Source: Eledone cirrhosa (lineage: Eukaryota). Taken from it: a DNA stretch of 64,000 nt. Every line of letters starts with the position of its first letter. The first letter of the stretch is position 1. The DNA lies in contig OZ024742.1 in the NCBI GenBank assembly GCA_964016885.1, positions 65,534,001 through 65,598,000 of the forward strand, written 5' to 3'. The notes under the pieces were generated by a model, which was given only the letters and a program-made list of their open reading frames with translations, ran no database searches and had not been told where the DNA came from. A program made the translations under genes and the position numbers. This document shows, piece after piece, positions 2,871 to 62,382 of the stretch.

Positions 2871-2936
2871 TATTTTGTCTGAGGAAGGCATACCATATTT
2901 TTAATATGATATCCCTGAAATATATATAATGAAATA
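2871..2936 (+). ncRNA. Hammerhead ribozyme (type I, minimal), family D
   Basis: tattttgt-CTGAGGA-aggcatacc...gatatccct-GAAA-tatata-ta^atgaaata; stem I pairs, stem III palindromic. Confidence 0.7.
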
Positions 2937-3008
2937 AATATGGTTTTATAAAAATAGTTTCCATTTGTTTAATATCGTATATATATATATATATATATAT
3001 ATTAATAT

Positions 3009-3650
3009 AGAAATTTCGTATTTCGAAAGAAATACGATTTTAGGAAGCCGTAGCTATGCAAACACCGGGGGGCTAACGCCCTCTAGTGATGTCCAGCAGA
3101 AGGAAAGGGGACAACCGTCTACGCATTTCAGGCTTAACTCGCCTTCGTCAGGACGATCCCTCTCACCGCTTGCTACTGCTGAACTATAAGACAGCCAAGA
3201 ATATATAGTTTTCTCGTCTGTGTAAATGAGGTGATTAATTTCATTTGCATATGAAGCTGCATAGTTGGCTCAACTTATAACAGCAAAGAAATAAGTTTTC
3301 GCTTCGAGTTTGATACGAAATCTTATTTCTTTGCTGTTATAAGTTGAGCCAACTTATGCAGCTTCATATGGATATGAGATTAATCACCTCATTTACACAG
3401 ACGAGAAAACTATATATTCTTGGCTGCCTTATAGTTCAGCAGTAGCAAGCGGTGAGAGGAATCGTCATGACGAAGGCCAGTTAAGCCTGAAATGCGTAGA
3501 CGGTTGTCCCCCTTCCTTCTGCTGGACATCACTAGAGGGCGTTAGCCCCCCGGTGTTTGCATAGCTACGGCTTCCTAAAACCGTATTTCTTTCGCAATAC
3601 GAAATTTCTATACATATTGTATAAAGCTATGCTTGAAGCGAAATTTTGTT
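3009..3650 (+). mobile_element. Family B fold-back element (~290-bp arms) with hammerhead
   Basis: ~3009-3296 is the reverse complement of ~3322-3610; second copy at ~29787-30130. Confidence 0.85.
3116..3155 (-). ncRNA. Minimal hammerhead ribozyme, family B
   Basis: cgtc-CTGACGA-aggc gagttaa gcct-GAAA-tgcg-ta^gacg; mirror copy at 3463-3502 (+) has ATGACGA. Confidence 0.85.
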
Positions 3651-3767
3651 TCTTTTCTCTCTCTCTCTCTCTCTATATATATATATACACACACACACAA
3701 ACACACACACACACATATATATATATACGATATTAACAAATGGAAACTATATTTATAAAACCATATT

Positions 3768-3832
3768 TATTTCATTATACATATTTCAAGGATACCAAGT
3801 TAAATTATGGTATGCCTTCATCAGACAAAATA
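3768..3832 (-). ncRNA. Hammerhead ribozyme, family D (short solo copy ~3740-3905)
   Basis: tattttgt-CTGATGA-aggcatacc...ggtatcctt-GAAA-tatgta-ta^atgaaata. Confidence 0.75.
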
Positions 3833-4442
3833 CAATATATACCAGTTTTATAAATAGACATTGACGTACCCTTTCAAAATGCAACCGTTACTTTTGGAAG
3901 ACATCAGGATATATATATATACATACACACACACATATATATACACACACACATATATAATATATGTATGTATATATAATATATATATCTATATGTATAT
4001 AGTTACACATATACATACATCCATACATATATGTATTTATTAATTTGTATATATATATACATATGATTATATATATATATATATACACGTGTATTTTGAA
4101 GTGAATCAATACATATATTGACAGGCTTATACAACGTATGATCATATATAGCCTGCGAATATAATCCCAGTATCCCACACAAGATAACGCATGCATAAAA
4201 CACATATAGATACAAGTTACATGTCATTTCTTTAACATCCATTTATTTACCCATACGTAAGTACGTAAGTACGTACATACATACATGATGGCTGCAAGCT
4301 AAGAGTATTGCACTCGCTTGTCAGATTATAGATTTTGGTGCACTCTTAGGCTACGGCCAGCCACACGATGCTGTAACATATGCTGAACAAGCAATGCCTG
4401 TGCTTTGAAGGTTTTTTACATACATACATATATACATAGATA

Positions 4443-57965: not shown

Positions 57966-60309
57966 TATATATATATATATATATATATATATATATATAT
58001 ATATATATATATGTGTATGTGTGTGTGTGCCATGAACTCACTTTCTCCGGCTAGAAAGTATTTATAAGTTGATAACTAGGATGTTTTATTCGTCATAATT
58101 GCTGAAATTCAATATAGAGTGTTTGTGTTATCCACTAATATGTTTCTAACCGGCAATACAGAGCCCCATACTTGTAGCCGATGTAAGAGGTTAGGCAATG
58201 CTTTTCTGAAATAAGTTCTGTGGAATGTAGGATAGTGGTTTCATAGTGGTTTCATTGTTCGGAAGATTTTAAATCTAGATCTTTTGTAATATATATATTG
58301 TTATAGTTAGTTTTCGGTTACGTGTGATGTATTCTGTACTCTGTTTTAAGCATTATGTTACCAATCTCTGAATCGATTCGTTATCAAGGTAATACATACT
58401 GATATGGTTTATACTTATCACCTGCAATATGTTTGGTTCACTGATATAAAGACAGAACTAAATTCATTGTTGCCAGAAATGTGACACAAGCTGATATTGT
58501 ATGTAATAGACTGGCGTCGTATCCACGAAATTATTTATCTTTCATTCTTTCTATTATGGATTTAAACAGTACATTTTATTCCACATTAGAGAGATTTATA
58601 TACCATCATGTCACTTGGTGGAAATATATACCAAATCAATATGGGAAATTTCATCTGCGATAAGAGTTTTCTTGAGCCAAATCAATCTAATATATTCAGC
58701 CCATTTCCTTTAAATCTATTTGGTCAAACAAAAGTTATAGTTTACTCCAAGTTCGAGTTGTTTTCGGAGGTTTAGGTCAGCAAAAGTAGAACAAAATGTC
58801 CCACTGAAAATCAATTCAAAATGTCTATAAACAAGAGCAGTCTTCATAAAAACATAATTTGATAATTACTGAATCCAGAACTAAATATTGAATGTGCAGC
58901 AGTATAGCTATTTTCTAACCAAATATGGTGGGCAGACGGATAGAACAATAGGATTAGAAAAAAAAAATGGTTTGATTTCATGCAAATAACCAGGGAAACA
59001 AAAGAAAAAATAGATGGCAAACAATCTTGATGAAATATTTATGATACAAACGAGTGTTCGCAATGTTTTTTTGTTGAGCTTTATATGAATCTCTGTGATG
59101 TTCACTCCATTTTTTTAACAATACAATATTATTAACTACAAAAGAATCAGATCACATTACTACGTTATCCTACCATATGTTCTGTAGATATGAACCAGAG
59201 AAAATAACCTAGCGACCAAACGAGCTTATATCACTGAATGAACATTATAGTTTATTTAAAAACTGCATAGCTTGGAGTACCGAAGCACACTCGCACAAAT
59301 CAATGCTCATACGTAAACTCCCCGAGAGACACAAAAATACAAAATACCAAAAATGCTAACATACATAGGCAGGGGAGACAAACAAATGAAATTAATTTCA
59401 TATAAGTATAGACATAAGAATAGGCAAATACAATTAAACAATAGATACACATCCACAAATATATATGCATATAAACATATATCCATCCATCCATCCATCC
59501 ATACATATATGCATACACAAGCACACACACACACACATATATATATGCATACATACAGAACCACACACACACACACACATATATATATATATGTGTGTGT
59601 ATATACATTGTACGTATATAATCACACCCACATGGATGTGAATGCCGTAGCTATTGTCGTCGTTGTAGCAGTTGTGTGGACTAAAGATGCGATAGAACGA
59701 ACGTAGAGACCAATGATTAATGAGGTATTGGCAATGTCGACTTTGTTATGGTTGCCGCCGTCATGGTCAGAAGGGTGATAGTAATTGTTATTGGTGGTGG
59801 TATATTAGTTGCTGTTGTCATTGTTGCTGTGGACACTGTTGTCATTATTGTAGTTGCCAACATTGTTGATGACGTTTTAGGCGTCATCGTTGTAGGCCCA
59901 TCGCCGGTTTTTGCGGAATGAAATGGAAGCTGAAGGCGTCTCTTGTGAACCAACGTGAAGGACGATATGATATGGTTCTAGAAAACATGATAGCGATGCC
60001 ACCACCAGATGGTTAATTGGGATATAAAAGGGCAGCTGCCAGACGAATAAGCAACCCCGGACAAACAGCGTTAAACAACTAGGGGATATAGAGGAATGGG
60101 TGACAGCTGTAGCTCCCAATAACACCCATAAATCAGTGATGTTGCTATGAAAAGGCGAGTAGAGGCTCCCTACAAAAAAAGCCTGGTATTCGCGGTTTTG
60201 AGAAAGTACCATATATATATATATATACACACACACACACACACATATATATATATATATATATATATATATATATATATATATATATACACACATATAT
60301 ATATATATA

Positions 60310-60575
60310 CTTCGTTTTTAAATTTGCAAGCTTTCTTATCTGAAAAGGTGGGTTGAAACAAATATTCTTATAATTTGGGTGGGTTATGTGCACACAACAC
60401 ACAAAAACAGAACAAGGGAGAGACACAAAATAACAAATCAATCACCGAGGAGATCACAGAATGTGTGACAAAAGAAGTTTGAAACAACCAACCGGGAATT
60501 TGGATTACATTGAAGTGAAAACCAACAGGTGCGGGTGTTTATATTGGCAACATGACCATTCCAAAGTATAACAAT
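60310..60575 (+). mobile_element. Family J copy: inverted tail plus body with degenerate hammerhead (60441-60483)
   Basis: Homology to 31785-32095. Confidence 0.65.
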
Positions 60576-61922
60576 ATATGTATATATATATATGTGTGTG
60601 CTTGTGGATGTATGTATTCTGTGTGCGTGTGTGTGTGTGTGTATGTATGTGTGTATCTGGATGTATGCGTATGTGTATATATATATGTGTGTGTGTGTGT
60701 GTGTGTATATATATATGTGTGTGTATGTGTATATATGTGTGTGTGTGTGTTTGTATGTGTGTATGTATATATATGTGCGTGTGTATGTATGTGTGGGTGT
60801 GTGTATATATGTGTATGTATATGTGTGTATATATATGTATGTACACATATATATATATATATATATATATGTGTGTGTGTGTGTATGTATGTGTGTATCT
60901 GGATGTATCTGGATGTATGTGTATGTATATATATGTGTGTGTGTGTGTATATATATATATATATACGTGTGTGTATGTGCATATATATGTGTGTGTATGT
61001 GTGTATGTATATGTATGTGTGTGTGTATGTATGTGTGTATATGTATATATATATATATATATATATATATATATATATATATATATATATATATGTGTGT
61101 ATGTATATGTATATGTATGTATGTATGTGTGGATGAAGGTATGTGTGTATATATAGGTGTAAGTGCACTAAATCCCTTTCTATCAATCTCCCCTCTCCTA
61201 CCGAGCACAGGAAGATATATGTATGTATATTGCTTCCACCCCCTCACTGACCAGCAGCTGGCCATCTGGCCATTGCTAAATTTGACCTTTATAAAATAAC
61301 CCACACCCCCAAATAACTTCTCATTCACTACCAGAAGCAGTCAACGAGCTGCTACCAAGATGAAAACTACTATGAAATCCCACAATGAATTTTATACTTG
61401 AATTTTCAAATCTCAAATTTTAACTCTTCTTATTATTAATTTTTCTTAATATTAATCAACATTTGAAAAGATGGCTTTTGCAGACCCATCGAAACCGGTC
61501 ACTTTTTATACCCTTTATTATTTCCTTACCTTATAAAATTATATGTTTTTTCACAAAAAAGTATTCTGTCTCTTATATATTCCATGTGCCATTACCAACC
61601 TCAATTTTCTCTATAACCTTCGTTTTGTGTAGTAAATTACACTTTTCATATATATATATATATATGAAGGGCTTATGCCCGAAACGTCATCCCCCACCGC
61701 TTGTTCTCAAGCGTGAACCTAATACCAACACTGTTCGTACTGCACTTTTTGTTATTGTTATTGTTATTGTTTTTGTTTTTTGTTTTTCACTTATATATAT
61801 AAATAAATATATATATATAGAGAGAGGTAAAACACTGGAAGGTAATATCCGTAGTGGTAGAGCACTCAGTCCATGGGACGAGTTAGGTAGAAGTAGTTCA
61901 ATAGTATAACAATGACCAGTTA

Positions 61923-61959
61923 GAGCTGAAGATCCGCATAAGATGAAACAATTGTTCTC
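61923..61959 (+). ncRNA. Minimal hammerhead ribozyme
   Basis: gag-CTGAAGA-tc cgcataa gat-GAAA-caattg-tt^ctc. Confidence 0.6.
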
Positions 61960-62112
61960 GGTATGGTGAACTGTGTTGTGTTACTACTTCTCTCTCTCTC
62001 TCTCTCTCTCTCTCTCTCTCTCTCTCTCTCTCTCTCTATATATATATATATATATATATATATATATATATATATATATATATATATATATATATATATA
62101 CATATATATATA

Positions 62113-62382
62113 AGCAAAAGGGATATTTAATTTGTTGGTAATTCAACAAATATATATGTTTATAACTGATTCGAAGCACTCGACAGTGTTTTCTGGAGTA
62201 TTATATCAATGATATTAAATAAATGGAAACCATATTTATTCTATTATATATATTTCAAGGGTACCAAAACTTTGGTACGCCCTCATCAGATAAAATACAA
62301 AGTTTGTTTTATAAATATTGACATATCCAGGAAGATCTTAACGGTTCAAGGTTTTCCTGGAAAACCTTGAACCGTTAAGATT
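62113..62382 (-). mobile_element. Family D copy with full tail and hammerhead at 62237-62297
   Basis: tattttat-CTGATGA-gggcgtacc..ggtaccctt-GAAA-tatata-ta^atagaata; terminal palindrome ~62335-62381. Confidence 0.75.

Follow-up and report, generated by a model that had tools for sequence, protein, structure and literature searches.

We analysed a 64,000-nt stretch of the Eledone cirrhosa genome (contig OZ024742.1 of the 3.0-Gb assembly GCA_964016885.1, positions 65,534,001-65,598,000 of the forward strand; hereafter the window), in which insertions carrying hammerhead ribozyme (HHR) motifs lie among (TA)n microsatellites. Eleven repeat families (A-H, J, K and N) contribute these insertions. 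Families A, F, K and N are truncated coding Penelope-like elements (PLEs) with a putative C-terminal (GIY-YIG-like) endonuclease (EN), and family C is a tandem unit without an open reading frame (ORF). Taken together, the sites in Table 1 are likely insertions into (TA)n of at least eleven families of PLE 3' ends and their ORF-less derivatives, each with a minimal type-I hammerhead that is predicted to cleave itself as a dimer. A first-pass annotation of the window had listed 19 hammerhead-shaped sites and assigned them to unrelated, short non-coding families, an observation that our analysis confirmed in part.

Table 1. HHR-bearing insertions and candidate sites in the window, by family (PLE, Penelope-like element; UTR, untranslated region)
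Family	Position	Strand	Element	Hammerhead
A	250-2975	+	5'-truncated coding PLE (PLE-A): ORF remnants 286-1075, then a long 3' UTR; 3' end adjoins (TA)n at 2976	Minimal HHR 2871-2936, core CTGAGGA at 2879
A	3727-3905	-	Short 5'-truncated copy, (TA)n on both sides; best genomic matches 99% identical	Canonical, 3776-3836
A	12480-12612	+	Subfamily copy	Mutated: GAGA instead of GAAA
A	62130-62320	-	Subfamily copy	Canonical, core at 62289; helix II altered by compensatory changes
B	3006-3660		Head-to-head pair: minus copy ~3006-3300, plus copy ~3310-3660 with an extra ~50-nt tail	Minus: canonical, core at 3151; plus: core ATGACGA at 3467, C3 mutated
B	29785-30148	+	Copy with a short inverted piece on its 5' side (29785-29850)	Degenerate at 29937 (helix I and foot of helix II mismatched)
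C	30697-31198	-	1.07 units of a 471-nt ORF-less repeat; 3' end adjoins left (TA)n	Canonical, core at 31025
C	31201-31559	+	5'-truncated copy (0.76 unit), head-to-head with 30697-31198; 3' end adjoins right (TA)n	Canonical, core at 31295
D	40928-42062	+	3' part of a longer ORF-less element (at least 1.6 kb); 3' end adjoins (TA)n	41955-42012: CTGATGA core, U.U pair at the foot of helix II, palindrome ATGATCAT
E	61821-61990	+	Old short unit (~170 nt)	HHR-like, 61921-61962: CTGAAGA core, palindrome ACAATTGT
F	25075-28199	-	5'-truncated coding PLE (PLE-F), ORFs 28305-26582; 3' end adjoins (TA)n	HHR-like, 25268-25312: core CCGAGGA, non-canonical
F	28199-28426	+	Inverted 5'-truncated copy of the 3' region, upstream of the PLE-F body	HHR-like, 28333-28378
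G	31780-31975	+	192-nt unit	Core mutated to TTGAAGA
G	42781-43033	-	Copy, head-to-head with a short plus-strand piece, 43035-43135	Core mutated to CAGAAGA
H	17355-17500	-	Copy	HHR core, helix II (GGGC/GCCC in majority), GAAAC-G
H	29636-29725	+	5'-truncated copy	
H	61665-61790	+	5'-truncated copy	
J	36294-36478	+	~185-nt copy between (TA)n runs	Canonical, core at 36351; 48-nt helix II, 10-nt palindrome ACTAATTAGT
J	37378-37600	-	Copy, head-to-head with 37775-38060	Core at 37501
J	37775-38060	+	Copy, head-to-head with 37378-37600	Core at 37870
K	10150-10388	+	5'-truncated 3' end of a coding PLE; 3' end adjoins (TA)n	10226-10340: CTGATGA core, 90-nt helix II, palindrome ACGTACGT, helix I of only 3 bp
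N	32600-32890	+	5'-truncated 3' end of a coding PLE	32699-32833: 7-bp helix I, helix II spanning 102 nt, palindrome ACGATCGT; private core mutation CTTAAGA
Candidate	11781-11906	+	HHR-like site, read from sequence	CCGATGA, ~95-nt helix II, GAAACAATTGTA, 3-bp helix I; fails all descriptors
Candidate	42583-42712	+	Site resembling that at 11781	

The strict descriptor of a type-I minimal HHR (helix I of at least 4 bp, CTGANGA, helix II of at least 3 bp, GAAA, a palindromic or short helix III, and NUH) found 6 sites in the window (2879+, 3151-, 3824-, 31025-, 31295+ and 62289-) against a mean of 0.01 in 200 shuffles that preserved dinucleotide content within 1-kb blocks. A second descriptor permitted helix II to reach 150 nt and to have a single unpaired base at its foot, which is a known trait of PLE hammerheads (Cervera & de la Peña 2014, PMC4209133); it found 7 sites against 0.03 in the shuffles, with 10229+, 36351+, 37501- and 37870+ as new ones. 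A third descriptor, which tolerated one core mismatch and demanded stronger helices, found 12 sites against 0.1, the new ones being 25306-, 28336+, 32706+ and 41959+. The site at 3467+ was recovered solely by the loosest scan, with 7 sites found and 0.86 expected. At every site that passed a descriptor, a self-complementary stretch of 6-10 nt runs from A15.1 to U16.1. For families A, B, C, D, J and K, copies in the window show the CUGANGA...GAAA core with NUH; for G and N, most genomic copies do. This core is broken in single mutated copies at 3467, 12509, 31845, 32706 and 42932.

We inspected all 19 positions of the first-pass annotation on both strands. Twelve of them pass a descriptor (2871, 3116, 3463, 3768, 10226, 25265, 28333, 30989, 31289, 32701, 41955 and 62237) and seven pass none. 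Four of the failing sites (12509, 29937, 31845 and 42932) are copies that have mutated or degenerated within families in which most genomic copies are canonical or close to it, and three are incomplete: 61923, with a 2-bp helix II, 11781, and 17455, whose family conserves no helix I. Three sites of one further family, J (36351, 37501 and 37870), had been overlooked.

The motifs are frequent in the genome as well. An unbiased sample of 20 arbitrarily placed 10-kb segments (loci L163-L182, 200 kb) contains 16 strict motifs, spread over 7 regions, where shuffles give 0.1; the observed density is approximately 1 per 12.5 kb or 80 per Mb. A pattern written for the family-A HHR has 30,371 exact matches genome-wide (15,338 + 15,033), and the reversed pattern has none (0 + 0). 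Covariation across copies, the absence of which the first-pass annotation had listed among its refuting conditions, was found in two families. Among 22 distinct A-type HHRs, 98.1% of cells pair, compared with 39-59% when the partners are slid; three helix II pairs carry compensatory changes, a score reached by 0 of 500 shuffles, and variation in helix I is limited to G.U/A-U changes. In family C, all 31 rows are canonical and 3 of the 31 replace GATGT/ACATC with the compensatory GTTGT/ACAAC, which adds one covarying pair. It could be argued that such motifs are chance matches in AT-rich, microsatellite-rich DNA, given that (TA)≥5 runs cover 7.1% of the window, that helices I and III of family A are themselves TA-rich and that Rfam is silent at most sites. 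This explanation, to which we assign a negligible probability, is refuted by the controls: the 6-12 observed sites stand against 0.01-0.1 in shuffles that keep the local dinucleotide content, the reversed pattern does not occur, and helix II covaries.

The families are distinct from one another and dispersed. All-against-all BLAST of 14 representative units gave merely three short matches, with E-values of 0.01-0.045, in agreement with the claim that the flanks are mutually dissimilar. In the 3.0-Gb genome, each family has between 438 and 3,639 first-look candidates, which are lower bounds: at least 1411 for A, 2011 for B, 1952 for C, 2206 for D, 2374 for E, 3628 for F, 3639 for G, 2907 for H, 3136 for J, 438 for K and 1117 for N. 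Fragmentary contigs from sequencing runs of unknown kind also indicated a very high copy number for the queried unit.

Four of the families continue into PLE coding sequence. Window positions 286-528 and 665-1075 match, at 84-89% amino acid identity (tblastn), a 566-aa ORF at another locus (L159) that is related to the PLE-F ORFs and lies upstream of an A-type hammerhead, indicating that a truncated PLE of 2.7 kb has the hammerhead at 2871 as its 3' end. The PLE-F ORFs encode the reverse transcriptase (RT) motif LYRDDALLL, a Cys-rich linker and a GIY-YIG-like C-terminus, and the 3' UTR of this family contains 105-109-nt repeats. With the ORF remnants at 286-1075(+) and 28203-26849(-), two motifs in the window are joined to PLE ORFs, the number that the first-pass annotation had given. 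Outside the window, a same-strand PLE ORF lies upstream of family K in 4 of 10 loci, and the family K motif is conserved among genomic copies; the same holds upstream of family N in 2 of 11 loci. Twelve of 13 genomic copies of N read CTGAAGA, showing that the copy in the window is a mutant. A relative of the family-F hammerhead elsewhere in the genome (L177:6753-6791; G000 C11) combines a canonical core, CTGATGA, with an 8-bp helix II free of mismatches, which suggests that the CCGAGGA core of family F is derived. Because they extend into coding PLEs, A, F, K and N are ordinary truncated PLEs by the rule that the first-pass annotation itself had laid down, and its description of short non-coding families was wrong for at least these four. 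No ORF was seen for D, H or J in the sampled loci.

The ORF of L159 has 192 homologues of about 700-760 aa, and the RT motif (G)GLYRDD is invariant in the 26 that were aligned. The only named homologues, from Argonauta hians and Hydra vulgaris, are 35-37% identical, and many of the homologues P0003-P0122 have the precomputed Pfam labels PF26215 and PF28514. In an AlphaFold model (mean predicted local distance difference test, pLDDT, 76.8), the predicted RT fold is closest to telomerase RT: the top Foldseek match in the PDB is TERT (3du5_A, E 1e-9, TMq 0.42) and the highest TM scores are those of telomerases, with retron and DRT RTs giving similar E-values. The GIY-YIG-like signatures VVYNCNV...FNYVGSTSTEFKFRFNNH of PLE-A and IIYSCTV...YIDSTSNCFKTRYNSH of PLE-F come after the Cys-rich linker, where the model has a beta-beta-alpha arrangement (pLDDT ~70); the L159 ORF stops inside this domain. 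The C-terminal position of the motif in PLE-A and PLE-F indicates that these elements are not Naiad-like.

This order of domains bears on the proposal that all of the units are non-autonomous, retrozyme-like elements that radiated separately and were mobilised by Naiad-like PLEs. The (TA)n preference described for Naiads (Craig et al. 2021, PMC8557442) would fit it, as would the closed ORF-less tandem units of family C and of an array at locus L175, and families B, E and G, with their short, discrete form at the loci sampled. However, A, F, K and N continue into coding PLE ORFs, and the PLE ORFs recovered in this genome have the GIY-YIG-like motif on the C-terminal side of the RT, whereas Naiads, as characterized in that paper, have an N-terminal EN and no canonical hammerheads. 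No PLE with an N-terminal EN turned up, although no search was aimed at such elements. We therefore regard a Naiad-mobilised radiation as very improbable. The first-pass annotation had offered it beside a second possibility, insertions of PLE pseudo-long terminal repeats (pLTRs) alone, and each possibility captured a part: the pLTR inserts describe A, F, K and N, a retrozyme-like nature holds for C and the array at L175 and is plausible for B, E and G, and the mobilisation by Naiad-like PLEs was unsupported.

The insertions share a target and an anatomy. As had been noted for almost all sites, the 3' ends adjoin (TA)≥5 runs, and the distances from the HHR core to the first such run cluster at family-specific values. 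Runs of (TA)≥5 make up 8.3% of the sequence at the family loci and 5.1% in the unbiased sample, besides the 7.1% of the window, where runs occur about once per 400 bp and are often fused to (CA)n or (CT)n. We observed strong 5' truncation, partial tandems (pLTR), an inverted 5'-truncated copy upstream, and a one-sided tail of about 38-96 nt. The 5' ends of A-type copies are scattered over more than 1.6 kb of the PLE-A reference (61 high-scoring segment pairs, not de-duplicated), and copies of family F likewise begin at varied 5' positions. The inverted arms are 91-96% complementary in family F (25220-25443 and 28199-28426) and 96% complementary in family B (3006-3263 and 3355-3612).

The pairs are usually head-to-head. 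At 2845-3905 (A) and 36289-37563 (J), inverted copies face each other tail-to-tail across microsatellites and another palindromic element, forming large imperfect palindromes with arms of 91-96%. A further family-A insertion (L028:1230-2100) lies inside another palindromic element, the two flanks of which are reverse complements of each other, indicating that such insertions are nested.

For the preferred reading, insertion of PLE 3' ends and their derivatives into (TA)n, the following course can be proposed. The GIY-YIG endonuclease would nick (TA)n, and reverse transcription of the element RNA would be self-primed close to the 3' end, at UA-containing sites. Tandem copies may arise from RNA templates that are circular or longer than one unit, and the inverted partner may be made in a second-strand event. 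The hammerheads, in which helix III is a palindrome of 4-10 nt, would pair from one unit to the next and release unit-length RNA from multimers. The RT-EN used by the short families would be that of coding PLEs.

Family C and the array at L175, which came from the random sample and has a 311-nt period, are closed ORF-less retrozyme-like tandem units. In the window, the family C pair has 345-nt arms that are 100% complementary, and the 3' end of the minus-strand copy lies ~74 nt further along the unit than that of its partner. Genomic copies are 98-100% identical, and the 471-nt spacing recurs at several dispersed loci on different contigs; one array with a period of 471 holds 3.8 copies with 99% matches, one HHR per unit and no ORF, and ends in (TA)n. 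The 311-nt array has four HHR-bearing units and a truncated fifth on the minus strand and two units on the plus strand, with the same layout as the family C pair and a one-sided tail of ~38 nt. Because the junctions carry the hallmarks of PLE insertions, namely outer 3' ends in (TA)n, an inverted array, a 38-74-nt tail and alternative UA-containing ends, we tentatively suggest that the 471-nt and 311-nt units may have been retrotransposed as multimers by a (TA)n-targeting PLE with a C-terminal endonuclease. If so, they would provide direct structural evidence, beyond the vertebrates so far studied, that retrozymes use PLE machinery, and that the templates are circular or longer than one unit. 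Tandem, near-identical units could also be minisatellites, seeded by one truncated PLE end and expanded locally through unequal crossing-over, a route proposed in the Discussion of Li, Clavereau & Pollet 2026 (bioRxiv 10.64898/2026.07.22.740005). This origin appears improbable to us, since 471-nt-spaced arrays or partial tandems occur at several dispersed loci on different contigs, and the arrays end in (TA)n with an inverted head-to-head array and a one-sided tail, as single PLE insertions do.

The remaining short families differ in age and completeness. Genomic copies of family B are ~90% identical with a unit of ~323-347 nt; of 24 rows sampled, 21 keep CTGA[CT]GA, with AUGCAU as the predominant helix III. 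Most candidates of family G match positions 160-351 of the query at 98-99%, and 14 of 18 rows carry CTGA[AT]GA, so that both window copies are mutants. All 16 copies of family J retain the 3' half and CTGATGA. Family E is older (80-87% identity). Families B, E and G are plausible non-autonomous units, given the short and discrete homology common to 10-11 sampled loci each. A 3' motif common to B and C, GAAGCGAAA, occurs 6 times in the window against 0.11 expected. We rejected it as a link between the two families: the hits are the B and C copies plus one other site, B and C have no BLAST similarity, and a common 9-mer between units of 350 and 471 nt is expected about once by chance.

Several observations weigh against the preferred reading of PLE-derived, self-cleaving insertions. 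With Rfam hammerhead models, no site in the window reached the gathering score; in searches at E-value thresholds over the whole window and 20 mini-loci, family C was the sole scorer (HH9, 32.9 bits against a cut-off of 52). The Rfam hammerhead models are built on canonical HHRs and thus constitute a weak test for minimal variants. Neither local Pfam, including RVT_1, nor a sequence-profile search against the PDB gave an RT or GIY-YIG match for the PLE ORFs, and the EN assignment accordingly rests on motifs and predicted secondary structure. Helix II of family E is weak (2 bp), and the majority of family G has one extra base ahead of helix II. In a 14-copy alignment of family H, the core, helix II and GAAACGUC are present and helix I has no conserved 3' strand, which leaves the hammerhead incomplete; its palindrome is the 4-nt ACGU and no descriptor was passed. 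No ORF-bearing relatives of B, C, E or G turned up in the 10-12 loci nearest the window copy. The 5' ends of D, H and J are variable, yet no ORF was seen in the sampled loci; for D, 7-8 kb upstream in two loci contains ~1.6 kb of common non-coding sequence and no ORF of at least 150 aa. At another locus (L013), the 5' junction of an array lies outside (TA)n. Finally, the widespread family F has a non-canonical core (CCGAGGA in 16 of 17 rows). In six of seven families, conservation among copies is no higher in the HHR segment than elsewhere in the unit, so that cleavage may be dispensable; the same pattern is expected for neutrally decaying copies.

The last two points, with at least 3628 candidates of family F carrying a U4-to-C core, agree with the view that the hammerheads are inactive relics or passengers that came along with the PLE 3' ends and are unneeded for transposition, as do the success of Naiads without HHRs (PMC8557442) and the low in vitro activity described in the 2014 study (PMC4209133). 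Nevertheless, unrelated families keep one architecture with a covarying helix II and a palindromic helix III, and the genomic majority is canonical where window copies are mutated (21/24 in B, 14/18 in G and 12/13 in N). Moreover, old family E alone among the seven has an HHR segment with less divergence than the remainder of its unit (3.7% against 8.7%, p=4e-5). We consider passenger hammerheads unlikely on balance. Folding by minimum free energy placed B, C and G monomers in the HHR three-way shape, and dimer folds gave no clean reading.

The window also contains elements of other kinds. Non-PLE retrotransposon ORFs lie at 5180-6454(+), 45135-45419(-), 46105-48248(-) and 49127-52567(+). The RT ORFs at 5180-6454 and 46614-48020 were set aside from the PLE finding, as they match Pfam RVT_1 and resemble long interspersed nuclear elements by their motifs; a third non-PLE element encodes an Exo_endo_phos endonuclease and zf-RVT. 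Positions 6187-6475 and 45114-45402 are 94% complementary copies, and 22513-22948 and 33903-34338 are the 436-nt arms of an inverted repeat, 93% complementary and 11 kb apart. A tRNA-like sequence at 28628-28699(-), whose score of 36.6 bits exceeds the Rfam cut-off, lies within the loop of an ~85-bp inverted repeat (28540-28830), which may be a tRNA-derived short interspersed nuclear element or a hairpin element.

Eledone cirrhosa therefore holds young (98-99% identical) and old HHR families together in one genome, and coding PLEs and closed ORF-less tandem units insert into (TA)n with like junction anatomy. This makes it a natural system in which to ask whether retrozymes ride on PLEs, whether the templates are multimeric or circular, and whether the minimal hammerhead is needed at all. 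With ~80 strict motifs per Mb in the sampled sequence and more than 30,000 copies of one type, this genome may rank with the most hammerhead-dense known. Repeat masking would hide the thousands of short PLE ends that are interleaved with (TA)n, a point to bear in mind in annotation.

The kind of element described here is already known, and its features match published descriptions; it is unusually abundant in this genome, and the value of the present case lies in detail and scale. Minimal HHRs in PLE repeats, with many covarying consensus families per genome, were described by Cervera & de la Peña (2014, PMC4209133), who assigned the mostly single motifs to truncated PLEs, noted opposite-strand pairs 100-700 bp apart and proposed circular templates. 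The Eledone motifs agree with these metazoan hammerheads in the CUGANGA...GAAA core, in a short helix I (3-8 bp here) and a long helix II (up to ~100 nt here), in the one unpaired base often found between A9 and helix II (here in G and H), and in the palindromic helix III (here ACUAGU, AUGCAU, AUAUAUAU, ACAAUUGU, ACGAUCGU and ACUAAUUAGU). They also share the many families per genome with compensatory changes, the predominance of single motifs and the opposite-strand pairs at 100-700 bp. They differ in that several helix II insertions reach ~90-100 nt and that a large family, F, has a U4-to-C core. Judged by the figures given there and by Cervera & de la Peña (2020, PMC7229834), motif density appears to be higher in Eledone.

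Among PLEs, the closest counterparts by features are the EN+ elements with a Zn-finger-like linker of the Neptune and Nematis type (Arkhipova 2006; PMC8557442). The inverted upstream copy, one-sided tail and microsatellite bias of PLEs, as well as Naiads without canonical hammerheads, are covered by the same source. Shared with Neptune and Nematis are the 5' truncation, the partial tandems, the inverted 5'-truncated upstream copy, the one-sided tail, the insertion bias toward microsatellites and an HHR near the 3' end; the tails (about 38-96 nt) equal or exceed the 30-40 bp that the paper quotes. The (TA)n preference is given there for Naiads, and a general microsatellite bias for Neptune. With Naiads, the Eledone elements share that preference and the complex tandem and inverted insertions; in contrast to their N-terminal GIY-YIG domain and lack of canonical HHRs, the ORFs here have a C-terminal EN motif and HHRs in the 3' ends.

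Non-LTR (long terminal repeat) retrozymes and their derivation from PLEs have been described (PMC7229834; bioRxiv 10.64898/2026.07.22.740005). The tandem units found here resemble them in being ORF-less, low in GC and a few hundred base pairs long, with a type-I HHR in each unit (471 nt in C and 311 nt at L175) and a proposed dependence on PLE machinery; the 471 nt of family C is slightly above the quoted 150-450 bp. Published retrozymes are defined by canonical HHRs with loop-loop contacts and by the expression of circular RNA. The Eledone arrays have PLE-type junctions, with (TA)n, an inverted partner array and a one-sided tail, which we did not find described for retrozymes in the accessible text of these two sources.

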